DNA from: Macrostomum lignano
Lineage: Eukaryota
Reading direction: 5' to 3'
Length of the DNA: 64,000 nucleotides
Assembly (NCBI GenBank): GCA_002269645.1
Contig: NIVC01003414.1
Coordinates: 1-64,000, forward strand
A program made the translations under genes and the position numbers. The notes under the pieces are model-generated. The model did no database searches. It saw nothing but the letters and a program-made list of their open reading frames with translations, and was not told the DNA's origin. Within the stretch, counting starts at the first letter, position 1. The number at the start of each line of letters is the position of its first letter. Shown piece after piece: positions 1 to 53,032 of this stretch.

Positions 1-1628
1 GAGGCCAAACAGAATGACTGGAAGTGAAAGAGAGGCCAGACAGAATCACAGGAAGTGAAAGGGAGGCCAGACAGAATGACCGGAAGTGAAAAGGAGGACG
101 ATACAGAATGACCGGAAGTGAAAGGGAGACCAGACAGAATGACCGGAAGTGAAAAGGAGACCAGACAGAATGACCGGAAGTGAAAAGGAGACGATACAGA
201 ATGACCGGAAGTGAAAGGGAGGCCAGACAGAATGACAGAAGTGAAAGGGAGGCCAGACAGAATGACCGGAAGTGAAAGGGAGACCAGACAGAATGACCGA
301 AGTGAAAAGGAGACGATACAGAATGACCGGAAGTGAAAGGAAGGCCAGACGGAATGACTGGAAGTGAAAGGGAGGCCAGACAGAATGACCGGAAGTGAAA
401 GGGAGACCAGACAGAATGACCGGAAGTGAAAGGGAGGCCGAAAAGAATGACCAGAAGCGAAAGGGAAACAGAAATTATGACCAGAAGCGAAAGGGAGGCC
501 AAACAGAATGACTGGAAGTGAAAGGGAGGCCAGACAAAATTACCGAAGTGAAAGGGAGGCCAGACAGAATGACCAGAGTGAAAGGGAGGCCAGACAGAAT
601 GACTGGAAGTGAAAGGGAGACCAGACAGAATTACCGGAAGTGAAAGGGAGGCCAGACAGAATGACTGGAAGTGAAAGGGAGACCAGACAGAATTACCGGA
701 AGTGAAAGGGAGGCCAGACAGAATGACTGGAAGTGAAAGGGAGGCCAGACAGAAATGACTGGAAGTGAAAGGGAGACCAGACAGAATTACCGGAAGTGAA
801 AGGGAGGTCAGACAGAATGACTGGAAGTGAAAGGGAGGCCAGACAGAATGACCGGAAGTGAAAAGGAGACGATACAGAATGACCGGAAGTGAAAGGGAGA
901 CCAGACAGAATGACCGGAAGTGAAAAGGAGACCAGACAGAATGACCGGAAGTGAAAAGGAGACGATACAGAATGACCGGAAGTGAAAGGGAGGCCAGACA
1001 GAATGACAGAAGTGAAAGGGAGGCCAGACAGAATGACCGGAAGTGAAAGGGAGACCAGACAGAATGACCGGAAGTGAAAAGGAGACGATACAGAATGACC
1101 GGAAGTGAAAGGAAGGCCAGACGGAATGACTGGAAGTGAAAGGGAGGCCAGACAGAATGACCGGAAGTGAAAGGGAGACCAGACAGAATGACCGGAAGTG
1201 AAAGGGAGGCCAGAAAGAATGACCAGAAGCGAAAGGGAAACAGAAATTATGACCAGAAGCGAAAGGGAGGCCAAACAGAATGACTGGAAGTGAAAGGGAG
1301 GCCAGACAAAATTACCGAAGTGAAAGGGAGGCCAGACAGAATGACCAGAAGTGAAAGGGAGGCCAGACAGAATGACTGGAAGTGAAAGGGAGACCAGACA
1401 GAATTACCGGAAGTGAAAGGGAGGCCAGACAGAATGACTGGAAGTGAAAGGGAGACCAGACAGAATTACCGGAAGTGAAAGGGAGGCCAGACAGAATGAC
1501 TGGAAGTGAAAGGGAGGCCAGACAGAATGACTGGAAGTGAAAGGGAGACCAGACAGAATTACCGGAAGTGAAAGGGAGGCCAGACAGAATGACTGGAAGT
1601 GAAAGGGAGACCAGACAGAATTACCGGA
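1..1628. repeat. 31-bp minisatellite (GACCGGAAGTGAAAGGGAGGCCAGACAGAAT), about 52 copies, runs off the window start; includes a ~770-bp higher-order duplication
   Basis: Unit periodicity read directly. The variant block GAAATTATGA recurs at 471 and 1243. The array resumes at 13042 after the LTR insertion. Confidence 0.95.
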
Positions 1629-3845
1629 TGATGTAACCACGCTCTGGTCGCGGGATAGGGCATGGGAACTTTTTCGAAAGTGCCTCCTATCCCGTGCACC
1701 CTCTGCACAGAGCTGTCGAGACTCGGCCAGGTCTCCGACCGGGCCTGGAGACTCCCGCTCTGCTGCACCCCTCCTGCTGCCTTGGTCCCGTCTCTCCTGC
1801 CGCCACACCTGCCTTTCCGGAGCCCCTACCCCTTTCTGTACCTCCCCCTCTACCCTATCTCTTCTGTTCCCGCCCTATTCTTCCTGTACTTTCTCTACCT
1901 CCTCCCTTTTTTTGTCTCCCTCTGCACTCTTTTCCTGCGCTGTCCCCTCTTTCCCTGTGTCTACTTACAGTACTTTGTGTGCTCACCGTCTCCCCATCCC
2001 CTCTCAAACTCCCAAACGGTGACGCAAGTCGTGTGACCCCTTCTCCCCCTCGGTGACTCATCGATGACTCATCCCCCTCTCTTGCGCAACCTTTTCTCAC
2101 GCTATTGTTCTCCTTCCCAAATTTCTCATGTGACACCCACCCCACCTCCGCTTCTATTGTTCTCGTTTTTGCTTCTTTTGTTCTCTCGACCCCCACCAAT
2201 TATCACATTTTCTCCGATTTTCTCTTTCTTTTGTTCTCGTTTTCGCACCTAATTATCACCTTTTCTCCAATGTTTACTTTTCCATTGTTCTCAGTTTTCC
2301 CCAATTATCCCCGATTTCCAATTCCTTTGTTCTCGACCCCAGCCCTATTGTTCTCAATGTTTGCTTGCGCAACACTTTCGCGACCACCCGCTGCGCCAAT
2401 TATCCCCCACCCCACCTCCGGATTGCGCAATTTCCCGATTTCTCATGTTGCTATGCCGGTCTCATGCTTCTCATCATGACTCATTCTGACGTCATTCTGC
2501 CGGCAGCCAATCAGAGAGAGGGAGCCATGGTAACGACCTTGAGGAGGCGGCTGTGAGGTCTATAAAAGGAAGCGATTTCGGCATGAGAATACTCAACTGA
2601 GTTTATCTCTGTTCCTCTCCTCGTCCTTCTTTGGACTTGCTGTCAGATTGAGTTCTGACCCATTCGTCTATAAGACGAATCCCTGCCGGTCCGCGGTCTG
2701 TTACCGCCAAGTTATCCTTAGCTCCCCAAGTGAGCTCGCCTATCGGCCAGCGGTCTGATACCGCCCAGCATCATCAGCATCGCCTGATCTACATCAGCGC
2801 CTCGTCGCTCCAGCGCATCGCCGCTTCACCGTCTGCCTGACTGCAGCCTACAGCCGCCCTCGGTCACTCCGCCTCTCTCTCTCTCTGTGCAGCTGCCGGT
2901 AAGTTCCTGCTACTAATTTGTGCTCTAATTGCCTTTGCTTATCCGGGGTTTGCCTATTTTCCATTGTCTGATTAGAGAGCTGAGCCAATTGTGATACCGT
3001 ATCTTTTGCTGTATTTTACTCAATAGTGAAGCCGCCTAATTGCCTGCTTATTTGCCTAAGGGCCTAATTATTAACTATTAACTAACTTCATCATTATTCA
3101 ATCTTTCACCATCATTTCACTCATGGCTTGCTAAGCCTTTCTCCCGGGGTGGCAAAGCATAAGGAAGTTTGGGTAAGCTAATGGCCTCTCCCCGTGCAAA
3201 GCCCGCCTGTGAGTGCGTGCTGCGGGGCCGCGTGTGCGTGCAGTAGAGGGATTAGCGAGTCTTGGCACAGAATGGCAGTAGGAAGGTTGCAACCCCATGC
3301 TAACGCGTCCCTTCGCCCTGAGCAATCTAAACTGTAGACAGTACATGTTCGCCTCATACTACTCTTAGTAATCAAAGTCGCAAGTCAGCCTCGCTCACAG
3401 CCACAAAGGATCCCCTGCTGAGAAATCCTCCAGGATTGAGCCCAGAGTTCCCGATCATGCCCCAAGCAGAGTCCCTGTACTCGGCTGCATGCGTCTCCCC
3501 TGTTAGCCTAAATCCCCTGGTAACCAATCCAGGCGGGGCTCTAGCCTCGAGAGGTCTGGTAGAAAGATCCAGGTGCGCCAGGTCACATAGAGTGGTGGCA
3601 GCCACTCGGTCATACCATGACCGAGTGACCAACTATTGCACCTTGGCTACAGGTGGGGTCCATGTGGGTCCTTGGCCCTCTGGTCACGAAGCGCTACCAA
3701 AGCTACTAATCATGTGGGCGGGACAGTCTGGTGCTGGAGGTCCGTCAGGTCATTGCCCGGTCATAGGCAGCCTACGGTCATTGCCCCCTCTAGCCATGCG
3801 TTCGTCTCTCTACGGAGCGGACAGGCGACAAGGGCGGTTACATCA
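1629..3845 (+). repeat. 5' LTR (2217 bp)
   Basis: TG...CA ends with a 10-bp terminal inverted repeat. Matches 10676-12892 except for about 3 substitutions and 2 single-base indels seen by eye. Confidence 0.95.
2487..2567 (+). promoter_or_regulatory. LTR Pol II promoter: CRE-like TGACGTCA, CCAAT box, TATAAAA (2561-2567)
   Basis: The motifs occur in canonical order and spacing and are repeated in the 3' LTR (TATA at 11609). Confidence 0.65.
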
Positions 3846-3848
3846 AAA

Positions 3849-3866
3849 TGGTGGCAGCGGTGGGAT
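3849..3866 (+). other. Primer-binding site complementary to the 3' end of tRNA-Leu (TGGTGGCAGCGGTGGGAT)
   Basis: 18 nt, 3 nt after the LTR end. It is the reverse complement of the conserved animal tRNA-Leu(AAG/UAG) 3' end ...AUCCCACCGCUGCCACCA. Confidence 0.9.
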
Positions 3867-6196
3867 CTGGTGCAAACAGCGCTGAGTTTCGGACTGGTGG
3901 TTTAGATGTGACAAGCGCACCTGTGGCATCCCTCAGAATGGTGGCCGAAGCGCAAAGAGTGCCATGTCTAAATCTACCAATCGTAAAAATCGCCAATCGT
4001 CATTCTCTTCTCCCATGGCGTGAGGCAACAAAATCCAAAAATATTAATGTAACTTTTCAAATTTTTCGGGCTGCGAATTCGTTCAATTCATTCGAAATTT
4101 CCAAATTCATTCATTCGCCAAAAGCCCCTGATTCAATTTAAAATTAATTTAGCCGATCAGTTTCAGCGCTAGAAAGTGTGAAGTGGTAGACGAGCGGATT
4201 TGATTACAATCAGAATAGCTACCTGGTAACGGAGTGTGTGAAGAACTGCGAAAGTGAATTTTCCGGACTCACTTTCTATTTCATGGTAATATGCTTTATT
4301 TCCCCTCCCTTTCTTTCTCTCGCCTAGCCTACAGCAGAACTGTGTGAGTGTTGAGGTGGACAGCCAGCCAGGTACGGAAGCCTCATCACGCAAGCACAGG
4401 GAAGCTGGAAGCGAAGCATTTCTTTCCTTTGTCCTACCTCTTTCTTTTACTCGGGGAGTGTAACAGTCGCTCTCCCTGATCGCTCAGTTAATCCTAGAAA
4501 TGCGTAGAGACCGGAGCGTGTTTTGTTTGTCCATTAGAATGAACAGCTATCAAGGGCTATGGGGAACTCGCTATATATGCATAGTAAGGGAAGCAGTAGT
4601 CATGGCCTTGGAAACATTGGGGGATACCAAAGTCTCGCAGGAATGGGAATAGCGGTGTGATTGTATCTCTGTAGGGTATCAGTGTGACTCAAAAATCTCG
4701 GGCTAAAAAAAGTGTCACCTCCTATGGAATACCTGCGATCAGCCCGGACCTGAATTCTGCGGTAACCCCTGGTGCCTTCATGGCTGGGATTCGATCCCAA
4801 CGTGTCTGCTGACTCTCCCCACTGTATTGCAGACCCGGTAGTAACTGCTTTGGTTGCATTTGGGCTGGTGCAGTGGCTGGAAATAGTAGATCCCATAGTA
4901 TCCTATTGATAGTGGAGTTCAGTGAGTATTGGAATGGTGTACTGGAAGTCTGGTGGCCCCCAGTGATCTCGTAATGTTTCCTGCTGCATTCTCCTCCTTT
5001 AGTAATTCCTCCCCCCTGCTGTCAGTCTGATAGGGGAGGTGGGTGTGCCAATCAGCCCGACCCGGTAGAACGGCGCTCCTGCCCGACTTGTCAGCCTGGC
5101 CCAGGAAGGCGCTATTGCGCAACTCTTTTCCCCTCTGGCCACTGCAGCCCACTAAGCGCTTAGACGCAGGGTTGCATGCAGTCCCCTAATGTAAAGCCCC
5201 GGTACATAGAGTGCCACCCCAGTGCCCCGCAAGGTCAATAAGACGGGTTGACGTCTCTGGCAACTTGGAATAACCTAGATGGAGGTACCGCTGTCTCCTG
5301 GTAGAACCGGGCGTTCAAGTACAGTAAAGTGGAGAGGCTGACAACTGTAGGACTTTCTCCGCCATCAGATAAAGGTCCCAAGTATGCTATTTCGAGCTGC
5401 AGCAAAGGTGGAGTATCGGAGGGGCAAGCATTTCAGGAAGATACTCACTTAGGTCTGTTTATCCTAGGAAAGCGGGCGAGAGTTTCAGGCTTGTAATCCG
5501 CCTAACCTGAAAACTTCGGGGACAGTTTAGTCTGGACTCCCGCTGCGCGCCTTCGCTCTGAACAGAAGGGGAGGTCTTGGTTTTTGTGGATTCTGCTAGA
5601 CGTAGGGGAGCTGGATTCCCGCCTTTTGTGAAGCTGCGTGTACAAGATTGGTAGTCCTGAGGTGGAAGCCCCACTGGACTCCGACGGTTTTCCGGCTGTG
5701 CAAGGGCAGTAAAGTGGGAGGACCTCCATGGGGATTGCTCCCGCCACTTGGGTTTTTGGGTCCAGGCGCCAACGCTTCTTCGTAGTAGCTTTCTTAAGGA
5801 AATGGGGTCCGGCGCGCAACCCTAGGGGAGAATTTGTACAGGTGCCGTAAGTCCGTTTACGGTCGGCATTTGGGTTCCCTAGCATGGCCGCAAAATGAAG
5901 GTCAAGTCTCTCTGAATAGCCAATTTTTCCCTGTCAGGATGTGCCATAGACAACTGGTAGTGGTAGCCGCAGTTTGAGTCAGTGTGCTTTGCCGAGTGAA
6001 GCCGTTAGGACTGCCTAAATGGAATTATGTGGAGCCACCCGTTTTTCAATTTGTTTTCTTCGACGCCGCAAGTGTGTGAGTTTTGTCTGTGTTTGTGTGT
6101 TTCGGATCAACTTTTCGGTCTTTACCTGTAGTTGCCCCGGTTTTCTTTTCTTTTCCTTCCCGGTGGTGGGTACTCCCCCAGCTATCCGGCATTCAC

Positions 6197-7640
6197 ATGT
6201 CACGGGCGCGTGGAGATAGGGTCGTAGAAGCTGTGTGCGCAGACGCCCCTGGTCAACCACCCTCGGCCGCTGACACCCCAGCAGTTGCCGCCCCCGCAGC
6301 CGCAATGGCCGCAGCCGCTGGTAACCAGGTCCCTCAGCCTCCAGAAGCAGTAGTAGTTGAGGAACCAGATGAAGGAGTAGCAGCTCCCGCTCCCAATCAG
6401 GGTGGCGCAGCAGCCGCCGCTGCTCCCCGGACGCAGCCCAGAATCCTCCTCAGGCAGTCCCGCAGCTAGGAGACTTAGTTGCCGCTATAGCCAATGCGTT
6501 TAACCAGCTAAACATGGGCCAAGACGCCCAGAGGCCGAAAATCTACGTAGAAAAGTTCTCTCCCGGCGAACACTGTTTTGTGCAATGGGTAGAGAGAATG
6601 ATCTACAAGCTGGACGCGGAGAGAACTGTAGGAGATCAGGCTAGGAAGCAGGTGCTCATCTCGCACCTCCCAGGTGAATTTCAGAACTTAGCCTTAGGAT
6701 TGGACGGGCAATTGCCCTTTGAGCAGTTCGTATCTAGATTAGGAGAGCAGTTGGGCGAGGCCAACACTGATCTGGCTAAGAGAAATAAGCTGAAGAATCT
6801 GAGCCAGAAACCCGGCCAATCACATAGTGCTTTTGCTGCTATGATAAGATCTCAGATAACGGCCATGTTTCCTCAGATTCAGGGTGAGCAGAGAGAACAA
6901 GAAATCGTGTACACCTACTTGGAACACGCTAAGCTCCCCCGCCAGGTCAGACAAGATCTGTTGAGCCGTCGCTGGCAGACAATTGAGCAGGTGTTAGAAC
7001 AGCAGCAAGCCCTGTTAGAAGCCGCAGACTTAGCCGGGAAATGGGACAGTAGTGGCCCGCCCAGGTCTGAGTCCCGCACCGAAGTCCGTCTGCAACCTCA
7101 GCAGCCACCCAGGCCCCCTCGCAAGTGGGTCAGGATGGTGAACCAGGAAGCTGACGAGACGGAGGAGGACGGTGACGGCCTATCAGAGATGCAAGAGAGG
7201 TTGGGCGCGCTAGAGCAAACGCAAAAGGATCTGCGCAACCAGCTGGTGCAGCTCAATGAAACTATGAAGGCGACAGCAGAGTCTGTTGCCCAGCTGCCCC
7301 AGCAGATGAGGCCCCCTCGCCCCGCCACTCCCAACAGGAACTGGAGGCAGGGGCAGGGCGGCTCTAATAGCAGTAGGAACTGGCGCCAACCCCAGCCCCC
7401 GCCGCTTGCAATTCAGGAGGCGCCCACGCCGCCGGCGCCGGGTGTGCAGCAGCAGCAATTGCAGCTTCGTGCGCCACTGATCGCCATAGGCAAGATTTAG
7501 AGGAGTGGGGCAGAGATATGTTAGACGAGGCTACCAGGGAGAGGCAGGAGAGGCTCGCCCAGCTGCGCGCGCAAGCTCTGATGCCTCCTCCTTCCACGCC
7601 TGAAGAGCCCCCGGGTTCGGGAAACCCGTGGGAGGGCTGA
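6197..7640 (+). CDS. gag: Gag (Ty3/gypsy capsid-like); as written it needs two 1-nt frameshifts (~6425 and between ~7377-7497)
   Basis: Ala/Pro-rich N-terminus from ATG 6197; core ORF 6514-7500 with capsid-like KLKNLSQKPGQSHSAFAAMIR; coiled-coil segment; an alternative frame open 7377-7640 ends GSGNPWEG* across the slippery site. Confidence 0.75.
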
Positions 7641-7682
7641 ATGGCCCGGCCCGAACTCAGCCCCGTTCCCTCTCTAGGGCCC
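7619..7682 (+). promoter_or_regulatory. -1 ribosomal frameshift signal: slippery G GGA AAC plus downstream stem/pseudoknot
   Basis: GGGAAAC at 7619-7625. Stem GGGCTGA (7634-7640) pairs with TCAGCCC (7657-7663), and loop GGCCC can pair with GGGCC (~7677-7681). A -1 shift enters the protease frame. Confidence 0.8.
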
Positions 7683-8143
7683 AGCTTAACCTGCCACGTC
7701 CGCCCAGCAAGAAGTTTAGATTTGAGAAGGTACCCGATTTCTATCAGCCAAGACCAGCTAGAGGACAACGCGGGAGAGATATTGTTGTAGAGTTGCCAAT
7801 TGAGAATGTTCCCACCCGCCTCCTGGTAGATGGGGGCAGTGCGCTGTCTTTGCTAACAGTCAAAGACTTTACTAAAATTACCGGACAGAGTGTGGAGGCC
7901 CTGGAGCCCCCATGTGTGAAGGCCGTGTCCTACACGGGCAATGAATTAGAGATGCTAGGCCAGGCCACCCTCACAGCAGTTATTGGGCTAGAAGAGGTGA
8001 GAATCCTCTTTCTGGTCGTTGGCAATTCAGCAGCAGTTTCCCTCCTGGGTAGTGCTTTTCTAGCCAGTACGCATGCTATCATAGACTATCGAACAGAAAA
8101 GGTTTACTTGCTAGGTGTGAGTCTCCCATTCGACCCCCGCTGA
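7619..8143 (+). CDS. pro: Retropepsin-like aspartic protease (stand-alone pro ORF, stop at 8141-8143)
   Basis: Active-site motif RLLVDGGSALSLL, flap-like VSYTGNELEMLGQ, and C-terminal LLGSAFL...IIDY typical of retroviral-type proteases. Confidence 0.85.
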   Translation, partial: GKPVGGLNGPARTQPRSLSRAQLNLPRPPSKKFRFEKVPDFYQPRPARGQRGRDIVVELPIENVPTRLLVDGGSALSLLTVKDFTKITGQSVEALEPPCVKAVSYTGNELEMLGQATLTAVIGLEEVRILFLVVGNSAAVSLLGSAFLASTHAIIDYRTEKVYLLGVSLPFDPR

Positions 8144-8734
8144 GTAACAGATCGGTAGCTAGCCAGTGATTGCTTAATTCCCCCCCCCCGATTCGCGTGT
8201 CGAAATTTTGCTCGTGTTGCCCCGTTGGAGACCGCTTTTCGCGTATTTACGTATGCCCTCTATTACTCGAATTTATGTTGTGACCTCGTGCTCGTTGGTG
8301 TTGTTTAAATATCTAAGATTTTAGCTCGAAAATTAGGCCCGTACAGTATGCGTTAATTCCCTATCAGTAAATATTAACTTGGAAACTAGTAAAATTTCTA
8401 TGGGTCTGCTCCACAGGAGGTCCTGCCCGCTGTTTAAGATTTTCTGGGAACAATGGAAGTCTGGGACCGTAGGAAATTAGCACCTTTAGGTCTGATTTCG
8501 TGTGTTTGTTCACACTTTGTGAAAGTCCGATTTTGGAAAACTTTTAATTGGTTTCGATGAGGCAATAGGGGGGGCATTCGATGTAATTAAGTTTATCAGG
8601 CAAATGGGGCAGCAATTAGTTTAGAGTAGGCCAGTGGTTTAGTCAATGTAAAGTCAGGTAAGTAATTAAAGTCAAGTTATGGGGACAGATAGTTTAGAAT
8701 TAGTAAGTTAAGTAAGCATTAAGAACCACCAGCA

Positions 8735-9141
8735 TCAGCAGTTGGGAAGCCGCAGAAATAGCTCCAAGAGCAGTAGCCAGTGCATTGTGAGACCGGCTAT
8801 TAGGGCCGTCGACAGCACGACCAAGTGCCAGGAGCCGTCGGTCTCCACCACAGGGGTTGGCAAGGGCTGTGGAGCGGCAGCCACGGGCGCCACCGCGGCG
8901 ACCGGCGGCGGAGCGTGCGCTCGGGCTGACAACGGCGGTGGTACCGAATGCCAACCGGCCCCGGACGCTGGTTCGCTGGCGGCTCGGCGGTCGCATGGCC
9001 CGGGAGCCGCGGCGCCTATGTCACCAGATGGCGCAGCCGGCCCAGAATCAGAGGGGGCGTCCGGCTCTGAATGGCTGTCTTCGGGCGCTTCGTAGTCGGA
9101 CTCCTCTTCAAGGATGGGCTCGGCTACTAGCGGCCGGAATC
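8735..9141 (-). CDS. Antisense exon encoding an acidic/Pro-Ala-rich polypeptide with a hydrophobic C-terminal segment
   Basis: Acceptor TTCTCATTTTCAG|G at 9141. The only open frame reads FRPLVAEPILEEESDYEAPED...HLVVLSTALIAGLTMHWLLLLELFLRLPNC*. No upstream in-frame AUG was found. Confidence 0.45.
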
Positions 9142-9956
9142 CTGAAAATGAGAATTTAAGGGATGAGATAGGAGTTAGGAAACTAGCAAATTATTAGGAT
9201 GTAGATAGATGGGGATCTTAACTTTATGGCGTGTGATAGTGGCCTTCTTGGGGGTTTCTTCATTTCTTCATTCCCTCTCCTTCTCTTGAGCTCTAGGTGA
9301 TCAAGTAGTGGTAGCCTTATTCCCCGCCTTCTTTTAATAATACACCTCAAAGTGAAGGCAGTTTTTCGTCTTCCTCTCCTCTGGTAGAAGGGCAAATGGT
9401 GACAGTTTCCCCGTGCAATCCACTCTAATTGGTGACGAGGTCCCTCTTTCTCTTCCCTGGTAATGTACAAATGGTGGCAGTTTTCCCTAGCAACCTCTCT
9501 CAAAATGGTGGCGGATCCTCCTTTTCTTTTCTTTAGTAATGCGCCAAGGTGGTGGTAGGTTCCCCTTTCTCTTTTATAATAGTACATCAAACTGGTGGCA
9601 GTCAAATTAATGACTAATTCCTCTTTCAAACTCTTTCGGCTGTTAAGTTTTTGAGGGTTTCGGAGATGTGAATGAGGCCTGTGTGTGTGTTTCTGTGTGT
9701 GCCACTATTTTTAATTTCACTATTTTTCTAATAAAAACTTGTTTTTCTAATATGCCACCTTTTACTAATAATATACGAGTCTTTGTTGTGCGTCAATCAA
9801 ATTCATAAAAATAAGTCTGTGTTGGCCTCTCACTCTTAGTACCGTAAGAAAAGACATATTGTACTACTACAGTTGGCTCAGTTTAATATGAAAGGCATGG
9901 CAAGTGGGTGGATTTCGTTTAACGTATAGGCGAAAGGAAATCAGGTTGGTGATGGG

Positions 9957-10069
9957 ACTTACCGAGTAGTTGTATAGTTTGGAAAATCGCGCTGAGTGCC
10001 TTGGTTGGAAACTGCGACTCCGTGTAGGTTGCAGGCAGCCGGCTCCCGTTATCAGTGGCGCCTTTTATA
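9957..10069 (-). promoter_or_regulatory. Candidate antisense promoter (TATAAAAGG 10069-10061) and first exon ending at donor CG|GTAAGT (9962)
   Basis: Motifs on the minus strand, with the same TATAAAAGG ... CG|GTAAGT layout as the sense LTR promoter. Confidence 0.45.
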
Positions 10070-10658
10070 CAGTGGCCAGCGCACGGCGCGGCGCCTCCCA
10101 GCCTACAACCGATCGCCCCGAAGCCCTCTGACTGGCTGAAGCGGGGTCCGAGCCTTCAAGGACGCTAGGCCTCCGTGCGGTTGAACTCCCGGCGAAATTA
10201 GCTTATTAATTTACTGCGCTGCATTAGTATTTTTCCCCTGTGTAATTGTCATTCTCCCCGAGGCTCTGCCCTTGGCTGTGTGCTAGCAACCCTTCCCCCC
10301 CTTTTTTTTCCCCACTTCCCTCACCCTTCCCCGTTTCCTCTCTTTCCCAGCTGCGCTTCTATCCAATTATGATAATTTATTGTTGACAATTCGCTATTTT
10401 TCTCCCTACTATTGCGCTGTCTGTGTTTCCCCCCTCCCACTTTAGCCACAGCAACAGTTGAAATTTTTGAAATTCTGTATTGCACTCCAACCTATGTATC
10501 TCGTTTTGTGAATTTATTGCTATCCCCTCTATTTTATCGCCTTTTTCCATTCCCGCTCGCGGATTGTTAATTCTGTGATTTCACGTTCGGTTGAGGTCCC
10601 GCTCCCGTCTGTGTGGTTCCATGTTGGGCAGTGATGATGACGGAACCAGTTCCGTCAC

Positions 10659-10675
10659 AAAAGGCAGTGGGGGTG
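10659..10675 (+). other. Polypurine tract
   Basis: Purine-rich AAAAGGCAGTGGGGGTG immediately 5' of the 3' LTR. Confidence 0.7.
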
Positions 10676-12892
10676 TGATGTAACCACGCTCTGGTCGCGG
10701 GATAGGGCATGGGAACTTTTTCGAAAGTGCCTCCTATCCCGTGCACCCTCTGCACAGAGCTGTCGAGACTCGGCCAGGTCTCCGACCGGGCCTGGAGACT
10801 CCCGCTCTGCTGCACCCCTCCTGCTGCCTTGGTCCCGTCTCTCCTGCCGCCACACCTGCCTTTCCGGAGCCCCTACCCCTTTCTGTACCTCCCCCTCTAC
10901 CCTATCTCTTCTGTTCCCGCCCTATTCTTCCTGTACTTTCTCTACCTCCTCCCTTTTTTTGTCTCCCTCTGCACTCTTTTCCTGCGCTGTCCCCTCTTTC
11001 CCTGTGTCTACTTACAGTACTTTGTGTGCTCACCGTCTCCCCATCCCCTCTCAAACTCCCAAACGGTGACGCAAGTCGTGTGACCCCTTCTCCCCCTCGG
11101 TGACTCATCGATGACTCATCCCCCTCTCTTGCGCAACCTTTTCTCACGCTATTGTTCTCCTTCCCAAATTTCTCATGTGACACCCACCCCACCTCCGCTT
11201 CTATTGTTCTCGTTTTTGCTTCTTTTGTTCTCTCGACCCCCACCAATTATCACATTTTCTCCGATTTTCTCTTTCTTTTGTTCTCGTTTTCGCACCTAAT
11301 TATCACCTTTTCTCCAATGTTTACTTTTCCATTGTTCTCAGTTTTCCCCAATTATCCCCGATTTCCAATTCCTTTGTTCTCGACCCCAGCCCTATTGTTC
11401 TCAATGTTTGCTTGCGCAACACTTTCGCGACCACCCGCTGCGCCAATTATCCCCCCACCCCACCTCCGGATTGCGCAATTTCCCGATTTCTCATGTTGCT
11501 ATGCCGGTCTCATGCTTCTCATCATGACTCATTCTGACGTCATTCTGCCGGCAGCCAATCAGAGAGAGGGAGCCATGGTAACGACCTTGAGGAGGCGGCT
11601 GTGAGGTCTATAAAAGGAAGCGATTTCGGCATGAGAATACTCAACTGAGTTTATCTCTGTTCCTCTCCTCGTCCTTCTTTGGACTTGCTGTCAGATTGAG
11701 TTCTGACCCATTCGTCTATAAGACGAATCCCTGCCGGTCCGCGGTCTGTTACCGCCAAGTTATCCTTAGCTCCCCAAGTGAGCTCGCCTATCGGCCAGCG
11801 GTCTGATACCGCCCGCATCATCAGCATCGCCTGATCTACATCAGCGCCTCGTCGCTCCAGCGCATCGCCGCTTCACCGTCTGCCTGACTGCAGCCTACAG
11901 CCGCCCTCGGTCACTCCGCCTCTCTCTCTCTCTGTGCAGCTGCCGGTAAGTTCCTGCTACTAATTTGTGCTCTAATTGCCTTTGCTTATCCGGGGTTTGC
12001 CTATTTTCCATTGTCTGATTAGAGAGCTGAGCCAATTGTGATACCGTATCTTTTGCTGTATTTTACTCAATAGTGAAGCCGCCTAATTGCCTGCTTATTT
12101 GCCTAAGGGCCTAATTATTAACTATTAACTAACTTCATCATTATTCAATCTTTCACCATCATTTCACTCATGGCTTGCTAAGCCTTTCTCCCGGGGTGGC
12201 AAAGCATAAGGAAGTTTGGGTAAGCTAATGGCCTCTCCCCGTGCAAAGCCCGCCTGTGAGTGCGTGCTGCGGGGCCGCGTGTGCGTGCAGTAGAGGGATT
12301 AGCGAGCCTTGGCACAGAATGGCAGTAGGAAGGTTGCAACCCCATGCTAACGCGTCCCTTCGCCCTGAGCAATCTAAACTGTAGACAGTACATGTTCGCC
12401 TCATACTACTCTTAGTAAACAAAGTCGCAAGCCAGCCTCGCTCACAGCCACAAAGGATCCCCTGCTGAGAAATCCTCCAGGATTGAGCCCAGAGTTCCCG
12501 ATCATGCCCCAAGCAGAGTCCCTGTACTCGGCTGCATGCGTCTCCCCTGTTAGCCTAAATCCCCTGGTAACCAATCCAGGCGGGGCTCTAGCCTCGAGAG
12601 GTCTGGTAGAAAGATCCAGGTGCGCCAGGTCACATAGAGTGGTGGCAGCCACTCGGTCATACCATGACCGAGTGACCAACTATTGCACCTTGGCTACAGG
12701 TGGGGTCCATGTGGGTCCTTGGCCCTCTGGTCACGAAGCGCTACCAAAGCTACTAATCATGTGGGCGGGACAGTCTGGTGCTGGAGGTCCGTCAGGTCAT
12801 TGCCCGGTCATAGGCAGCCTACGGTCATTGCCCCCTCTAGCCATGCGTTCGTCTCTCTACGGAGCGGACAGGCGACAAGGGCGGTTACATCA
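10676..12892 (+). repeat. 3' LTR (2217 bp)
   Basis: Near-identical to 1629-3845. Confidence 0.95.
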
Positions 12893-13041
12893 AAATGGTG
12901 GCAGCGGTGGGATCTGGTGCAAACAGTGCTGAGTTTCGGACTGGTGGTTTAGATGTGACAAGCGCACCTGTGGCATCCCTCAGAATGGTGGCCGAAGCGC
13001 AAAGAGTGCCATGTCTAAATCTACCAATCGCGGTTACATCA

Positions 13042-13370
13042 CGGAAGTGAAAGGGAGACGATACAGAATGACCGGAAGTGAAAGGGAGGCCAGACAGAAT
13101 GACCGGAAGTGACAGGCCAGACATAATGACCGGAAGTGAAAGGGAGACGATACAGAATGACCGGAAGTGAAAGGGAGACCAGACAGAATGACCGGAAGTG
13201 AAAGGGAGACGATACAGAATGACCGGAAGTGAAAGGGAGGCCAGACATAATGACCGGAAGTGAAATGGAGGCAATACACAATGACCGGAAGTGAAAGGGA
13301 GGCCAGACAGAATTACCGGAAAGGGAAAAGGAGGCTAGCCAAAATGACCGGAAGTGAGGGAAGGGAGGCA
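13042..13370. repeat. Continuation and end of the 31-bp minisatellite
   Basis: Same unit as 1-1628, decaying into unique sequence near 13330-13380. Confidence 0.9.
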
Positions 13371-13954
13371 AGTCAACATTCCCATTAGTATCAGAACAGC
13401 CGGTATGTTCAGAAAAACCCAAATTTTATATACTGGGAGCTAAAGTTAATTTATAAATTAGGCAATCACCAGGCGCATAGGAAATGTATTTATTTAGGCG
13501 AGGAATTTTAATCAATAAATAGTATGAACGGCTTAAGGAGAAATTTTTTGCATGAATTTTCAGCAATACAAACCCAGTGCTGCACGCCTGCAGAAGATAG
13601 TGAGAATACGTGTAGATCTGATAGAGAGCAGTAACCTGGTGTTAAAAACTGGATTTGCAGTAAAACAAAACTCGCTGAAACAGAGAATTACTTGGAGCAT
13701 AATTAGATTAATTAGCCATGCGGCTGTTAAGGGATTTTAGCTATTAAAAAAAATTGAACGACAAGTCCACGAGCCAAATACACGGGCCACTCGGAACATT
13801 TGCGTGTAAGCTACTTTCAGTAGAAGTTAAATATAAGCAATTTTTTGTTTTTCAGGACACGACTTGGCTGTATTGGAGTCAGTATTCTTTCTGACTATTG
13901 GAAATGCTACCCGAGCGGCCCATATAGTTATCATAGCATTTGCAGTCATAGCAG

Positions 13955-15008
13955 TTACTGCTGAGGCGGCGGGGGCACCACAACCACGGGCCTGCGGCTG
14001 TGCGAGATGACAAACTCGCTAACTGAGCCCAGGATTGTGCGGCGAATAGTGCCGAGGCCGCGCGTTCCCATGACAACCAGGTCGGCCTTCTCCTCGGCTG
14101 AGGCGTCCACCACGGCCGGGCCGGGGCTCAGCGAGTCGGCGTACTTCCACCTGCGGGCGGCCGAGAGTCAGTGCGCGTGCACCCACAACTGAGTTCATTG
14201 GCTTACTGGATTAATGCGCCACTCTGCGCCGCTGTGGGGCACATATTGTGGAGTTGGAGACTGTAACTATTTCTGCATGTCTGCCTGCCTGTCTGAGTGT
14301 CTGTCTGCCAGCCTGTCTGTCTGTCTGTAAACCTGCCCTAGTGTCTGTCTATCTGTTTGTCAACCTGCCCTAGTGTCTGTCTGTCTGTTTGTCAACCTGC
14401 CCTAGTGTCTGTCTGTCTGTTTGTCTGTCTGTTTGTCAACCTATCCTAGTGTCTGAGTGTCTGTCTGTCTGTCTGTTTGTCAACCTATCCTAGTGTCTGA
14501 GTGTCTGTCTGCTTGTCAACCTGTCCTAGTGTCTGTCTGCCTGCCAGCCTGTCTTTGTGTCTGTCTGCCAGCCTGTCTGTCTGTCTGTCAACCTGCCCTA
14601 GTGTCTGTGTCTATGTCTGTCAGAATGCCCTAGTGTCTGCCTGTCAGTCTGTTCTAGCGTTTGTCTTAGTGCCTTTGTTAGTGTTTATCTGGCTCTCTGC
14701 CTCAATGCCTGCCCGCCAGCCGACCTGCACTGCATGCTGTGTTGCTTGCACTGCTCCATCATGCTCTCCTCCAGCCGGGCCACCCGCTTTCTCAAGCTCT
14801 CCTCGGCTTGTCGAACGTCGCTATCGGATGCCGGAATTCCGGTGGGCGCCACCAGGTGGCTGGGCAGGCTGCCAGTGTGGAAGAGAATCACATCCTCCCC
14901 TGGCGTGGCCAGGTTGGTGCGGTACCAGTCGAATGCGTTCTGGCTGTGGCTGGAGCCGTCAACAGCAATCAGCACCCTCTGCTGCGGCTTGGAGGACTGG
15001 CCACCCAT
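13955..15008 (-). CDS. Universal stress protein (UspA domain), copy 1; exons 15008-14725 and 14150-13955; 159 aa
   Basis: RVLIAVDGS motif in exon 1; ADLVVMGTRGLGTIRRTILGSVSEFV...PVVVVP in exon 2; GT-AG phase-2 intron gives a continuous frame. Confidence 0.92.
14280..14700. repeat. (TGTC)n-based low-complexity repeat in the USP copy 1 intron
   Basis: TGTC runs interspersed with CCTAGTGTC. Confidence 0.9.
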
Positions 15009-15313
15009 GATGCAAAATAGGCTGCAGTGGGGGAAATTGGACTAGGCTAAACTACTGACCACGAAGACGAACTTCTAGCCATCTGTAGCAATTAGAAAAC
15101 TTTCATAATTTAGGTACCCAGCATCATAAAACTAATGCCAAGCCAGGTTATAGCAACTGTCTGTCATACATGTACATGTACACTAATTACATCAACTATG
15201 ATATAGATGAAAGGCTTAAGAATAGTTACAAGCAGAAAAGATCATGTCAGCACATAGTTCAGTAGATTTTATCTATACCCGCTAGACTTCTAGTAAAATT
15301 ATTAAAAGAAGTA

Positions 15314-18691: not shown

Positions 18692-19891
18692 TTACTGCTG
18701 AGGCGGCGGGGGCACCACAACCACGGGCCTGCGGCTGTGCGAGATGACAAACTCGCTAACTGAGCCCAGAATTGTGCGGCGAATAGTGCCGAGGCCGCGC
18801 GTTCCCATGACAACCAGGTCGGCCTTCTCCTCGGCTGAGGCGTCCACCACGGCCAGACCGGGGCTCAGGGAGTCGGCGTACTTCCACCTGCGGGCGGCCG
18901 AGAGTCAGTGCGCGTGCACCCACAACTGAGTTCATTGGCTTACTGGATTAATGCGCCACTCTGCGCCGCTGTGGGGCACATATTGTGGAGTTGGAGACTG
19001 TAACTATTTCTGCATGTCTGCCCTAGTGTCTGTCTGTCAGCCTGCCCTAGTGTCTGTCTGTCTGTCTTAGTGTCTGTTAGCCTGCCCTAGTGTCTGTCTG
19101 CCAGCCTGTCTGTCTGTCTGTCAACCTGCCCTAGTGTCTGTCTGTCTGTTTGTCAACCTATCGTAGTGTCTGAGTGTCTGTCTGCCTGCCAGCCTGTCTT
19201 AGTGTCTGTCTGCCAGCCTGTCTGTCTGTCTGTCTGTTTGTCAACCTATCCTAGTGTCTGAGTGTCTGTCTGTCTGTCTGTTTGTCAACCTATCCTAGTG
19301 TCTGAGTGTCTGTCTGTCTGCCCTAGTGTCTGCCCCAGTGTCTGCCTGCCCTAGTGTCTGTCTGTCTTACTGTCTGTTAGCCTGCCCTGCCCTAGTGTCT
19401 GTCTGTCTTAGTGTCTGTTAGCCTGCCCTGCCCTAGTGTCTGTCTGTCTTAGTGTCTGCCAACCTATCTGTCTAAGGTTGTCTGCCTGCCTGTCTTAGTG
19501 TCTTTCTGTCTGTCTGTCTTACGGTTTGCCTATCTCTATCTGTCCATCTTAGTGTCTACATGTCTGTCTGTCTGTCTGCCTCAACGCCTGCCCATCAGTT
19601 TTTCCACCTGCACTGCATGCTGTGCCGCTTGCACTGCTCCATCATGCTCTCCTCCAGCTGGGCCACCCGCTTTCTCAAGCTCTCGTTGGCACGTTGAACA
19701 TCGCTATTGGATGCCGATATGCCAGTGGGCGCCATCAGGTGGCTGGGCAGGCTGCCAGTGTGGAAGAGAATCACATCCTCCCCTGGCGTGGCCAGGTTGG
19801 TGCGGTACCAGTCGAATGCGTTCTGGCTGTGGCTGGAGCCGTCAACAGCAATCAGCACCCTCTGCTGCGGCTTGGAGGACTGGCCACCCAT
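18692..19891 (-). CDS. Universal stress protein, copy 2 (tandem paralogue); exons 19891-19608 and 18887-18692; 159 aa
   Basis: Same exon sizes (284/196 nt) and motifs as copy 1, with a modest number of substitutions. Confidence 0.9.
19010..19590. repeat. (TGTC)n-based low-complexity repeat in the USP copy 2 intron
   Basis: Same motif family as 14280-14700. Confidence 0.9.
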
Positions 19892-21049
19892 GATGCAAAA
19901 TTTGGCTGCAGTGGGAAATTGGACTAGACTAAAATTTAGGTACCTAGCATCTCAGAATTAATGCTGAGCCAAATAATAGCAACTTGAAAATATATTGCTG
20001 ATATAATTATATGTAGCTAGTGGTCAACTAGGATGGTAAACTCTATTAAGAGTTTAAGCATATGATAGACTTTTTAAAGGAGTCAATTATGAGCCACAAG
20101 TTTAAAACCCTAAACAAAATCATCTCTTAAAATGCAAACTTCTTAGTCTTTAATTCCCTAACTCCTAATTTATCCCTAATCCCTTCATTTCATTTACAAG
20201 CCACAACACTAATACTCAACTTTTGACTTGTTCCAAATCTTTGTCACATAAAATCTAGTATTTGTTATTTGGATTGTCAACTTGTCTATTCCAAATTGAA
20301 CTGAATATTTGGTCAATTTGATACAATTCTAAATATTTGTCCTATCTCTATACCTAACCTCATTTTATAATGCAAAAATAGGAATGAAAGCACAGTAGTA
20401 GTGCAAGCAAATTTTTTGAGGAAAGGGCCAATTTGAGAGTCTAAAGCTCTAATGGGGAAAGAAGGGGTGGCTCTTGATTATAGCAAAAATTTGCTTGGTC
20501 CCCACCTTTATTTTTTCTGGTCTTTGCCTAATGAAGGGGGCGACTGCCTTTTCCTATCTCCTCTAGTTCTACTATTATGCAAACATTAAATATTAAATTA
20601 ATATTCAAGACATCTGGTTTAAAAAAGACAAAACAGAAAAAAACTAGATAATTTGCTTTTTATTTTTGTTTTAACTTTGATATGGCCTTTTAAGGATAGA
20701 TACAAAAATCATGCATTATATTGCTTAAACTATGTATTTATGCTATAACTAAACTAGATCTTTCTTATAATTTTAAAATCAGATGCCTTTTGGCCCTTGA
20801 TTTTGCATTTTTAATTATATATACATTGCTACACTAGAACTATTAGACTATTTCATAGCTTGATAAATTTTAGGGTTAAGTTTAAGTTTTGTTGGGCTAA
20901 GTAAAAGGCTATTACTTTAATTAAAATAATTAGTATAACTTAAAAACATTTAGAATCAATTAAACTTGAGTTTGCACCACTCAGTCCCTAAATTAAAACT
21001 CTAATATTTTAGATAGCTATTGTGTCTACTAATCTCTAACTATAAAAAT

Positions 21050-31215: not shown

Positions 31216-33242
31216 ATAGCCAATGGCAATAGGTAGATGCAGTATAGCATAGGCCTATGCAATTGACAGCTTAGCCATAGACATAGCTATTGTGTGGTAT
31301 AATTGAAGATAGCCAAGAACCAAATATAGGCCTACATTCAATTATTCTAGCTAATACTAGTAAACTAAAACAGACAAAGCAAAGCACCCATTTTATAGCT
31401 GGGTGAACTAAAGCAATGTAGAGTTAAATGTCTTAGGTCTACTCTTGCTCAAGAATATAATTTTTTAGACTTAGAACCTTTTAAATTATAAGTCCAACAC
31501 CTTGGCTAGGCCTAATCCTTGTATTGTGGCCTTTATTAGCTGGTTTTATTATATAATCATATGCAACTAACTAGTGCCTAACATTTAGACATTTTGGTAC
31601 AAAACAACAAAAGTAAATTAAATTAACTTAATTTAAACTAAATAAAATGAAAAAATGGTAAATTAAAAATAAATTACTAGCATTTACTTTTGTTAGTAAA
31701 TAAGTTAGTAATAATAGGCCTAGGCCAATGAGTAGGCTATAATAGTTTCTAGACACAAGTATTATCTTATTCTTATATTTGCAACTTTGTCATCTTATAA
31801 GTTAGGCCTATATTTATTATCTATTTTAAAGATAAGATACTTTGTTATCTAGCCAATTTATATACTTTGGAGTTTGATCAGTTTGTTATCATCAATTAAC
31901 ATAAACCATTGTAGACTCAATTAATAAATGCTATTGCATACAAGGGTTGATAGTTATTTTATCTATTGCTAATTGTCTGTGACTCATTTACAAAATATAA
32001 ATGCAATCATTGCAGCTATGTAGTCAATGAGGGCTGTAGTTTATACTTGTTAAGATAAACTAATTATTTATTTTCTACCAAATCTTTTATTTGCAAATTT
32101 AAATTCATGAGAGTCATAAAAATAAGCTGCATAAAATATAGTCATATTTGCAAAGGATGGCTGCACCTAAAACTTGATGTATAATTTGCATTTGTTTTGT
32201 GTAGCTTATAAAAATTTTCATTCCTATGTGCCTGTTCTTCAGTGTTTTAAATAGAAAGGAGAGACAGTGGAGGCCCTTGCTTCACTTTTCTCCTGCCTAC
32301 ATCTATTGGCCCAAAGGCATGGCCATTGCCTTAGTTGGGCTATAGACAGCAGTAGCCTTGGTCCAGGAATGCTGTGCTTCAAGTTCAATTCTTTGTTATC
32401 CCACTTATCTGGCATGAGCAGAAGGTGCAGACAAGACACAGAATACTACCTGTTACAATAAATAAGCTTTTTTATATGATCATATAAGCCAGGGCCAACT
32501 TAAAATCAATATATGAGTATTTTTTTTAATAATTCAAAAAAACAAAACATTGAATACATAATAGTCTACATTTATATATGTATATATATTATTATATATA
32601 ATATTAATATAAAAAGTTATAAAGCTTAGAAATATATTAGATAAGCCAAATTGGGAGTATCTTATCTTAATCTATAGATATAGAAAATTGTCATCATTGT
32701 ACCATTGGAATGATAGTTTTTAGACCCATTTTTCATTTTCCATGTTTTTTCTCACTTTATATATTAATCTCATTTATTCTTTTTGTCCTATGTACTATCT
32801 GTATCATTTTTGTTCTTAGTTAATCAGTTTTGCAACATATCTGTCTTGGCTATCCACTTATCTAGGCCAGCTTAGTCAGGTGTTGTGCATGTATGCTAAA
32901 AGAATATATTAAAAATTAAATAGAGAGAGAAGCATATATTTAAAGAATAAAATCCACATATACAAGATATCTAAAATGCTATAATAAAAGATAGGAGTTA
33001 AGTGATACAGCTTATGGATACTAATAATAATAGTAATACTATTCACAATATACTAAGTAACTGTACTAATAATAGTAAAAATTATACTCGTAGTAGTACT
33101 AATAATCCTGCAGCATAGAAATTTATAACCTGTAAAATTAAAATAAAGGCCTATTATAGTTCTGAGTTCTGTTTGAGCCTTATAAGTTATCTCCCCAATG
33201 CTACACAGCTCCAACCTAACCATACACCCGCAGCCAATCAAA

Positions 33243-35470
33243 ATGCCCCTAGAAGCCAACCGAGATGATGCAATTCGTCAAGCTGCCGAAGAAACTGATC
33301 GATATTTCAATGCCGCATCGGCGCCCAGGTTAAAGTCGAATTATAATAATAAAAAGTGCAAGAATAACAAGAATAAATCGGCAAGTAGATCCCGCCCAGC
33401 CACGCTCGCCTCCCTGGCCAACCGGCCGGACGAGGAGACTTCGCTGCGCCTGGCCGAAGAGTACATCGAAGCCACCGAAGCTGCGGCCAGCTCGCCAACC
33501 GCAGCCGAGGCCGAGTGCGCCCGGATCTACTTTGCTGACTGGTCGCGCCGCCTTCGCGTGGGCGGATTCAGCCTGCTAGTGTATGGCCTGGGGTCCAAGC
33601 GGCACCTGCTGCGCCAGTTCAAGTCTGCCTGCCTCGGCGATCAGCTCTGCGCCGAGATTGACGGCTTCCATCCCGAGGCCGGTCCCAAGGCCATCCTGAC
33701 GGCGCTTGTTGAGGAACTGATCGGCGAGGTGACGCCCAGCTCTGCCAAGTCGCTGCCTGACATGGCCAGGCTGATTGCTTCTACTCTGGAGACTGTCGGC
33801 CTCACTCTGTACATTGTGGTGAGACTGGTTGACCTCAGCTCTGTCAACCTCACAAACTTGAACCCTCAGGCTTAATCCCAACCTACCAACCCCTCATGAT
33901 CTCGGGTCTTTAATCTAGATCCCTATACTGGATTCCCAAATCTCCCAGATCCCCATACTGAATTCCCAAATCTCTCAGATCCCCATACTGCATTCCCAAA
34001 TCTCTCAGATCCCCATACTGCATTCCCAAATCTCTCAGATCCCCATACTGAATTCCCAAATCTCTCAGATCCCCATACTGCATTCCCAAATCTCTCAGAT
34101 CCCCATACTGAATTCCCGAATCTCCCAGATCCCCATACTGCATTCCCAAATCTCTCAGATCCCTATACTGAATTCCCGAATCTCCCAGATCCCCATACTG
34201 CATTCCCAAATCTCTCAGATCCCCATACTGAATTCCCAAATCTCTCAGATCCCCATACTGCATTCCCAAATCTCTCAGATCCCCATACTGAATTCCCGAA
34301 TCTCCCAGATCCCCATACTGCATTCCCAAATCTCTCAGATCCCCATACTGAATTCCCGAATCTCCCAGATCCCCATACTGCATTCCCAAATCTCTCAGAT
34401 CCCCATACTGAATTCCCAAATCTCTCAGATCCCCATACTGCATTCCCAAATCTCTCAGATCCCCATACTGAATTCCCGAATCTCCCAGATCCCCATACTG
34501 CATTCCCAAATCTCTCAGATCCCCATACTGAATTCCCAAATCTCCCAGATCCCCATACTGGATTCCCAAATCTCTCAGATCCCCATACTGAATTCCCAAA
34601 TCTCCCAGATCCCCATACTGGATTCCCAAATCTCTCAGATCCCCATACTGAATTCCCAAATCTCCTAGATCCCATTCTGTCTTCCCAAATCTCTCAGATC
34701 CCCATACTGAATTCCCAAATCTCCCAGATCCCCATACTGGATTCCCAAATCTCTCAGATCCCCATACTGAATTCCCAATTCTCCCAGATCCCCATACTGG
34801 ATTCCCAAATCTCTCAGATCCCCATAGTCCAGTCCCAATACGCCGCCCTCAGTTCCACAGCCTTGACGGGCCGCAGCTGCGCACGGACAAAGCCGCGGAG
34901 GCCATCACGGCGCTGGTCTCATCACCGACTGTCCGAATGATCGCCAGTGTGGATCACCGGCTGTGCCAGTTGCTGTGGGACCGCGGCCAGCTCACCAGCA
35001 TGGCCTGCCTGTGGTGCCAGTTGCCCAAGCCGCTGCGCCCCTATATCGAGGAATTGCCTGCCAGCGCCGCCTACACCGGCCGGGCCGTCGAGTCGACAAC
35101 CGCCGGCGCCGGTTCTGGCGCCGTTGGCATCGGCGGCGAAGTGTCGGTCGCGCTGCAGCTGTCCAGCCTGCGGCACCTCATGGCCTCGCTGACGCAGAAC
35201 GCCAGGTCGCTGTTCGTCATGCTGGCCAGGCGGCAGCTGGAGCGGCCCGGTGAGCCCTGGCCGCTGGATGAGGTTTACACGGCCTGCCGGGACGGCATGT
35301 TGGTCACCTCCGAGCTCACTCTGCAGGCTCACCTCCGCGAGTTCCGCGACCACGGCCTCGTCAGGCTGAAATTCGACGGCCGCGGCCAGGCCGGCGACTC
35401 TGCGCTGGTGCCGCTGCCTGCCGACACCCTGGTGCAGTTCCTGGCTGCGTTCGGCGACGAGTGCGACTGA
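33243..35470 (+). CDS. ORC2: Origin recognition complex subunit 2; exons 33243-33818 and 34853-35470 (~397 aa; the start could be ATG 33198 or an unseen upstream exon)
   Basis: GFSLLVYGLGSKR, EIDGFHP, LYIV|FHSLDGP, IASVDH, LLWD, and winged-helix SLTQNAR...LREFRDHGLV all match ORC2 motifs. Phase-0 GT-AG intron. Confidence 0.92.
33915..34825. repeat. 30-bp minisatellite filling the ORC2 intron (about 30 copies)
   Basis: Unit CAGATCCCCATACTGAATTCCCAAATCTCT. Confidence 0.95.
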
Positions 35471-37450: not shown

Positions 37451-37612
37451 ATAGTCTCTTCTGTAATCTTGAACACTGATCCCAAAACTGAGATGCCACA
37501 GGTAATCAAATCACATCAGTAAGCAAGCTGCCATATTCTATCCAACATTTCATGCTGTCGCCCTTCGCTGCTAAAGGCTCACTCACTGTTGACTACGCAG
37601 CCAATCAGAGGC

Positions 37613-52838: not shown

Positions 52839-53032
52839 TGTTATAAGTTATAAATTATAAATTATACATTCAACTTAAATTATTTAGATTAAAATTATGT
52901 GAATTAAATTAAGTGATAAAATTATAAAAATTCTAAATAAATTTAAATATTAAAATTATGGATTACCTTTAAAAAAACTGACACAGGTATAAAAGTAATT
53001 TGCTACAACAATATTGACTCTTGATAATATCG

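Follow-up and report, generated by a model that had tools for sequence, protein, structure and literature searches.

A candidate antisense gene with a predicted membrane tail in a Gag-protease-only LTR retrotransposon of the flatworm Macrostomum lignano

Introduction

Maize Grande (gene23), rice RIRE2, Retand (TRP28), PvRetro13 and the fungal Boty element are described as carrying an antisense open reading frame (ORF) downstream of pol and before the 3′ LTR (PMC7264820, PMC11963269). The function of the plant ORFs is still open, and an element in contig NIVC01003414.1 of Macrostomum lignano raises the same question in an animal where transgenesis and RNAi make it testable. In the stretch analysed here (64,000 nucleotides, positions 1 to 64,000 of the contig, hereafter the window), an original prediction made from the sequence alone placed a spliced minus-strand unit in the env position. 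Does this unit encode a protein, does it act as an RNA, or is it a relic?

A survey of M. lignano LTR elements classifies them by reverse transcriptase (RT), and the words 'antisense' and 'non-autonomous' are absent from its main text (PMC12801592); RT-based surveys of this kind are blind to a family that has Gag and protease only. In databases, the antisense exon itself passes for a host gene and goes by automatic names unrelated to it. We found no published description of the unit, subscription journals and an earlier M. lignano LTR classification lying outside the search.

Results

The unit lies in a young Gag-protease-only retrotransposon

The host element is a young, non-autonomous Ty3/gypsy retrotransposon of M. 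lignano that encodes only Gag and protease. It consists of the following parts.

1625–1628 and 13042–13045: target duplication of 4 bases, flanking the element
1629–3845, plus strand: 5′ LTR, from comparison of the LTR pair; read contigs leave the window sequence at 3845
2561–2906, plus strand: LTR TATA box (2561) and splice donor, with an intron from 2899; the sense counterpart of the antisense module
3849–3866, plus strand: primer-binding site
6197–7640, plus strand: gag, capsid-type, no zinc knuckle seen (profile and fold searches)
7604–8143, plus strand: retroviral-type aspartic protease frame, entered by a −1 frame change, with a slippery-type heptamer at 7619
9300–9605, plus strand: array of about seven degenerate copies of a 12-mer reaching from the LTR end into the primer-binding site
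10659–10673, plus strand: polypurine tract
10676–12892, plus strand: 3′ LTR, from comparison of the LTR pair
12893–13041, plus strand: extra tail of a primer-binding site, about 135 leader bases and a second LTR terminus

The two LTRs are 99.7% identical and have TG...CA ends with 10-base inverted termini; together with the target duplication, the primer-binding site and the polypurine tract, they make up the features expected of a Ty3/gypsy LTR element. We take the primer-binding site at 3849–3866 to be of the tRNA-Leu type; the window contains no tRNA gene for comparison. The insertion site is a 31-base tandem repeat array (1–1628 and 13042–13450). In the extra tail, the second LTR terminus is 12 bases long and the target duplication comes only after the tail, which resembles an aberrant reverse-transcription end that was integrated nonetheless. 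In a read run presumed to be DNA, LTR bins were tens of times deeper than internal bins, as a summed depth that gives no copy number, and solo LTRs in number, or other families, may share the LTR at 1629–3845.

Upstream of the gag ATG, the LTR donor at 2899 is followed by acceptor candidates at about 6130 and 6184 (2899–6196, plus strand); a candidate 3.2-kb leader intron from 2899 would strip the primer-binding site off the gag message. In the 12-mer array, four copies match at two mismatches or fewer, against at most one in 300 shuffles, and the array is a possible carrier of packaging or priming-related signals. An Rfam scan over 1600–13100 gave no match, and the element has no canonical heat-shock element anywhere along its length.

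The gag of the window copy has two frameshifts, near 6424 and 7476, and contigs from four read runs vary in length at both. The frame at 6454–7155 has six Gag relatives (E 3e-8 to 7e-4, among 1.84 billion representatives), two of them from M. lignano, and the relatives carry Retrotrans_gag/PNMA domains. The predicted Gag fold is nearest to the PNMA2 and Arc capsids, with E values of 6e-3 to 2e-2 that fall short of the tool's 1e-3 mark; a Gag word search at 191–609 residues and a metagenome scan with Gag returned nothing. The protease frame matches ASPRV1 (E 1e-7). As for the RT, RNase H and integrase of an autonomous Ty3/gypsy element, none gave a Pfam match in the 46 stop-to-stop frames of at least 55 codons over 3850–10675, and tblastn with the pol-bearing part of the protein P0011 matched only the gag of the window.

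The antisense unit has splice signals and one open frame

The minus-strand unit is made up as follows.

10061–10069, minus strand: TATA box TATAAAAGG, a motif beginning at 10069; predicted internal antisense promoter
9963–10040, minus strand: predicted non-coding first exon, its start placed about 30 bases past the TATA box
9142–9962, minus strand: intron of the window copy, with donor CG/GTAAGT at 9962 and a pyrimidine tract and CAG at its end
8735–9141, minus strand: likely final coding exon of the candidate antisense unit, with a phase 1 acceptor, 134 full codons and the stop at 8737–8735
8747–8831, minus strand: codons of a predicted membrane helix, corresponding to residues 184–211 of the 215-residue sister protein P0008
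8543–8548, minus strand: ATTAAA, candidate polyadenylation signal of the antisense RNA (motif)

On re-reading, the TATA box (10069), the donor (9962), the acceptor (9142/9141) and the exon from 9141 were all found where they had been predicted. The acceptor is preceded by a branch-like CTAAC (9178–9174, minus strand), and the module, which lies about 600 bases inward of the 3′ LTR, is directed against gag. The open frame, predicted at about 135 codons and counted at 134 full ones, encodes an acidic, then Pro/Ala-rich, then hydrophobic product, with a Kyte-Doolittle value of 2.0 over 19 residues near its end. Joining 9963 directly to 9141 does keep the frame open, as had been read, with only the near-cognate starts CTG (10038), ACG (10023), ATT (9987) and ATA (9975); the sole in-frame AUG, at 8785, lies within the hydrophobic tail.

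Of the six frames of the exon, this is the only one free of stops. In 2000 dinucleotide shuffles, the same openness arose by chance at 3.8% for the given frame, 11.6% for any minus frame and 23% for any of six. The open frame by itself is weak evidence for coding (p 0.04–0.23) because the DNA is so GC-rich (68–75% over 8801–9100). Codon-position bias is stronger evidence: under a model whose training set was the gag and protease of the element plus 200 codons of a host gene, the exon frame has a log-odds of +6.4 and the other five frames −8 to −21, the maximum in 500 shuffles being 3.1. A six-class composition test pointed the opposite way, giving the exon 0.09 for a real frame, though its sensitivity is no more than 17 of 29 real windows. 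An Atlas search gave no usable match for the exon or P0008, Pfam found nothing for the exon, P0008 or the diverged sister protein P0003, and a PHROGs search found nothing. The exon also weakly resembles the Gag N-terminus (E 0.03), a match that was dismissed as low complexity.

The antisense promoter resembles the LTR promoter

The layout had been said to mirror the sense LTR promoter, and it does so in three motifs: the antisense module and the LTR have an identical 9-base TATA box and an identical 8-base donor, and a 9-mer is common to both introns, exactly 81 bases in from each donor. When the whole LTR was aligned to the whole minus strand of 8143–10675, the best local alignment was the donor region (2885–3030 with 9977–9829), with a score of 43 against a highest of 42 in 100 shuffles; the intron part alone was equalled in 2 of 1000. 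Around the TATA box, nothing aligned beyond the motif itself, 145 of 1000 shuffles being as good. The likeness was seen by local alignment only and was not reported by nhmmer or blastn. Its simplest reading would be that the LTR module was duplicated in inverted orientation long ago. The two modules may also have converged on motifs common in the host, as both 9-mers, that of the TATA box and that of the intron, have one further copy in the window beyond the element.

Annotated sister proteins carry an ATG exon that the window copy lacks

A search with the exon returned seven clusters among 642 candidates, all from M. lignano; counting the members of these clusters and an additional longer model, there are 11 sister proteins. 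In ten of the 11, an 80-codon segment with an ATG sits in frame before the exon of the window. The joint falls exactly at the acceptor 9141 and in its phase in eight proteins and likewise in one diverged copy, while of the remaining two, one has its joint displaced by four residues without a change in length and the other has no upstream segment. Five of the 11 models start at the Met of the upstream exon (207–234 residues), and P0008, with 215 residues, is the unbroken form.

The 80-codon exon has no match within the window. As ten of 11 sister proteins carry it, 9141–8735 probably forms the 3′-terminal exon of an antisense gene of about 215 residues. Contigs of sister copies break from or leave the window sequence at 9650–9665 and 9840, and one 2743-base DNA contig only partly fits the window; other copies therefore differ inside the intron, and the window copy likely misses a piece there. 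Judging from these breaks, the ATG exon likely lies at about 9650–9840 in fuller copies, and the window copy is likely a derivative without a start codon, able to make only an AUG-less RNA.

Ten of the 11 models are known through UniRef alone and, by accession type, are presumably predictor-based. The other, P0007 (BOX15_Mlig001352g23), comes from an annotation built on a stranded RNA assembly, in which the weaker strand was discarded at a fivefold difference (PMC5730564), a description that does not specify if ORF calling was limited to a single strand. Mlig001352 is absent from the searched supplements of PMC12801592, PMC5730564 and PMC5816591. The UniRef names (GPS, BON, US8A, LigA, ORF3 and Senescence) were rejected because near-identical proteins receive conflicting ones and Pfam supports none. 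P0017 was set aside as a chimeric model of ephrin-like repeats and a piggyBac transposase followed by the two antisense exons. Outside M. lignano, no relative of the antisense product and no family was found, and scans of metagenome and viral sequences with P0008 returned nothing.

The ATG exon has the make-up of a shadow frame

The make-up of the ATG exon scores a log-odds of −16.5, where real windows range from −3.4 to +29 and shadows from −23 to +0.3. The six-class test assigns it to a reverse-strand shadow class with a posterior of 0.99, a class into which 1 of 29 real windows falls, and its second frame, which is read in P0005, goes to the matching shadow class, also at 0.99. Given this shadow-like make-up, fuller copies likely hold a sense ORF at the ATG exon, in the true env position. 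The antisense gene may overprint that ORF, or gene finders may have misjoined the exon, fusing a shadow with a real exon whose true start lies elsewhere. Just before the point where sister copies depart, the window has a branch-like, pyrimidine-rich acceptor candidate (9608–9645, plus strand), which could serve an env-position sense ORF spliced from the LTR donor.

One read run breaks exactly at the acceptor

Contigs were compared from four runs, three presumed to be RNA and one presumed to be DNA; none is recorded as RNA, and all are strandless. In run X19, a contig of depth 48 stops exactly at 9142, and an intron contig continues at depth 25; nothing else aligned on 9167–9513, and the bin at the acceptor holds 520–1170 depth × bases unexplained, the size of a 30-base stub. 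Splicing to any partner that ends in G would produce a break at this base, although a diverged intron variant could explain it as well. The contig of run X2 breaks at 9128, and run X8 has no break there. Among the 15 of 20 joints listed, there was none into 9141, including 9141–9963, and no sense splice from the LTR donor 2899; the missing 9141–9963 joint is weak evidence because the expected splice from 2899 was not seen either.

Differences between copies partly favour the predicted frame

Among the 40 rows listed of 374, five differences lie inside the exon. In the predicted frame, three are silent and two are replacements, the ones found in P0001 and P0008; in the third minus frame, two of the five would introduce stops. 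Between copies, the intron varies at 28 of 537 positions and the stretch 8180–9142 at 8 of 963, about six times more in the intron. In the diverged P0003, changes affect 20 of the 58 residues that can be aligned ahead of the tail and 2 of the last 37, both conservative, in a comparison that omits a frame-shifted middle of about 40 residues (p 0.001, 36 being entered). Should P0003 be a mosaic of subfamilies, as it may be, this too would account for the conserved tail and the unchanged ATG exon.

Frame-breaking indels common in the exon had been named as an argument against the prediction, and here the outcome is mixed. Seven of the 11 models carry frameshifts in the exon (four lose the tail, three shift and then regain the frame), which speaks against it; the shifts are scattered, though two models have one in common, and all six gap letters of the X2 contig fall outside the exon, which speaks for it (the gaps in X8, two, and X19, four, are unplaced by the rows listed). 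The model frameshifts may be assembly errors, since the window has single-base length differences itself.

The product is predicted to be tail-anchored

AlphaFold predicts for P0008 a single helix at residues 184–211 of 215, with a pLDDT of about 90, and values below 60 for the rest. The predicted C-terminal anchor was thus recovered, with marginal hydrophobicity: the helix contains His, Trp and Glu and reaches about −0.5 kcal/mol on a membrane-insertion scale. The antisense product is predicted to be disordered apart from this C-terminal tail-anchor helix. The N-terminus of P0008 is basic and, by eye, has no hydrophobic signal, and its one membrane helix lies within about 30 residues of the C-terminus; without a hydrophobic N-terminus, the Pro/Ser/Ala arm would face the cytosol, in a tail-anchored layout. 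A mucin-like protein, which the original prediction had also offered, is unlikely for the same reason.

Discussion

A possible mechanism

These results suggest a chain of four steps. First, an internal TATA/donor module, which matches the LTR module in motifs and spacing, would direct transcription against gag. Second, fuller copies would splice the 80-codon ATG exon onto the exon 9141–8735, as the gene models and one contig break suggest. Third, the product of about 215 residues would be inserted into a membrane by its tail, with a predicted cytosolic arm that is basic, then acidic, then Pro/Ala-rich. Fourth, the protein might tether Gag or element RNA to the organelle membrane where particles assemble, and might act in trans for AUG-less copies such as that of the window. 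We lean towards the first three steps taken together; the fourth, the membrane tether acting in trans, is the likeliest role for the protein but a doubtful one, and the whole chain including it is a good deal less probable than its first three steps. As for a translated, tail-anchored antisense accessory protein, we consider the balance to be even. It is rather unlikely that fuller copies combine an env-position sense ORF, an overlapping, overprinted ATG exon, an inverted duplicate of the LTR promoter and a tail-anchored protein that docks the capsid.

If they do, an animal LTR retrotransposon that gave up RT and integrase would have retained a membrane-bound accessory protein on its antisense strand; if the unit is only a relic or an RNA, the finding is ordinary.

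Alternative readings

The antisense RNA itself may be the product, pairing with the 3′ part of the element RNA and limiting copy number by small-RNA silencing or by blocking sense transcription, in which case the frame would be incidental or in decay. The window copy retains the promoter and the splice signals although it has no AUG, M. lignano has ping-pong piRNAs that target transposons (PMC4604429), and the micropia element is described as producing non-coding antisense RNAs from an internal promoter (PMC7264820). However, the codon-position bias, the excess of silent differences and the conservation of the tail would be unexpected of a non-coding RNA. We judge such an RNA product to be unlikely as the sole explanation, and it is compatible with the protein, since both may coexist.

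Likewise unlikely is a passenger relic: a piece of LTR inverted long ago (promoter, donor and leader intron), together with a gene fragment, would have travelled along during amplification of the family, and gene finders would have produced the proteins by joining a shadow frame to this fragment. The alignment of the donor region to the LTR, the shadow-like ATG exon, the inconsistent UniRef names and the silence of Pfam all fit such a relic, and in a family as young as this one, with LTRs 99.7% alike, the frame of a relic would not yet have closed. Against this, the adjoining intron is about six times more diverged than the exon side, P0007 comes from an RNA-based annotation, and the break in the X19 contig coincides with the acceptor.

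Very improbable is the direct splice of exon 1 to 9141 proposed originally, which would give a protein of about 165 residues from the CUG at 10038. The join is in frame and stop-free and may happen in copies like that of the window, but the CUG context is weak, the 9141–9963 joint is absent among the 15 of 20 listed and the X19 and X2 contigs run unbroken across the donor, both weak evidence, and the sister models place an ATG exon, missing here, before the acceptor, with exon 1 (9963–10040) coding in none of the 11.

The least probable reading is that a spliced leader is trans-spliced to the acceptor, so that AUG 8996 opens a 98-residue protein in another frame, for this frame has none of the five exon differences silent and the lowest codon-position score (−20.6), even though it is likewise hydrophobic at its end. 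The M. lignano leader, which we take to end in AUG, would read just five codons from an AUG at 9141, whereas a leader ending in G would also give the X19 break. Trans-splicing is given for 38.8% of M. lignano genes (PMC5730564).

Comparison with known systems

The protein-coding reading has several partial parallels. By its definition, a TR-GAG element has gag (with protease), no RT or integrase, a recent insertion and an autonomous partner that shares its LTR and primer-binding site. The host element has the gag and protease, lacks RT and integrase and is a recent insertion with a young LTR pair, as in TR-GAG-type plant elements; it differs in its flatworm host, 2.2-kb LTRs, 2.3-kb leader and added antisense gene. 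In HTLV-1, HBZ is antisense, spliced and coding, starts in the 3′ LTR and encodes a nuclear bZIP protein.

The plant antisense ORFs, as their descriptions go, resemble the window unit in lying antisense before the 3′ LTR, with repeats nearby, and in occurring in non-autonomous copies; an upstream promoter of its own is demonstrated for Grande, and the window unit has promoter motifs. It differs from them in its animal host, the lack of pol, the likely splicing over a long intron and a predicted membrane tail in place of a nuclear or DNA-binding product. Neither TRP28 (PF04195) nor any other Pfam domain was found in the exon, P0008 or P0003, and without TRP28 the unit is not a member of the plant group. 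The likeness to plant gypsy elements that had been pointed out thus stands for position and probable promoter, and not for sequence, predicted location or host, which is a flatworm. Whereas the roles proposed for the plant ORFs are nuclear, the predicted tail anchor suggests one in the cytoplasm and linked to membranes.

The sORF2 of the Drosophila MDG1 group, a FAST-like fusogen, is, like P0008, a small single-pass accessory of an env-less LTR element (bioRxiv 10.1101/2025.03.14.642691). Compared with sORF2 as presented there, P0008 has no MGxxxS/T start and no Gly 2, a terminal instead of a central helix, one Arg after the helix and no polybasic tail, and lies on the antisense strand, so that it lacks the FAST-like features. 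The ORF3 proteins of LTR elements in bdelloid rotifers, some of them short and with membrane domains, share with the antisense product a family-specific occurrence, a length of 210–230 residues, the env position and a spliced message of their own, but have two membrane regions, cysteines and a furin site or coiled coil (PMC5408684). The antisense product has none of these and, unlike ORF3, is on the antisense strand. P0008 also differs from an Env glycoprotein, which would have a signal peptide, a cysteine-rich ectodomain and a fusion peptide; P0008 has 215 residues, two Cys, predicted disorder and a single terminal helix. As described, micropia has an antisense transcript at its 3′ end, like that predicted for the window unit, its transcript being non-coding and complementary to RT (PMC7264820).

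Other features of the window

Two similar universal-stress-protein exons lie on the minus strand at 14685–15041 and 19595–19951 (Pfam Usp, E 2e-6 for the first), and the copy of the TATA 9-mer at 15868 is a candidate promoter of the first. By eye, frames at 46149–47764 (minus strand) resemble a non-LTR reverse transcriptase, and an AT-rich frame of 770 codons at 50535–52847 (minus strand) resembles a DNA-transposon transposase. Host-like exons, again judged by eye, are found at 33186–35470 (ORC2-like), 37610–38944 (RRM-type) and 43522–44400 (DnaJ-like), and their introns are packed with 30-base tandem repeats.
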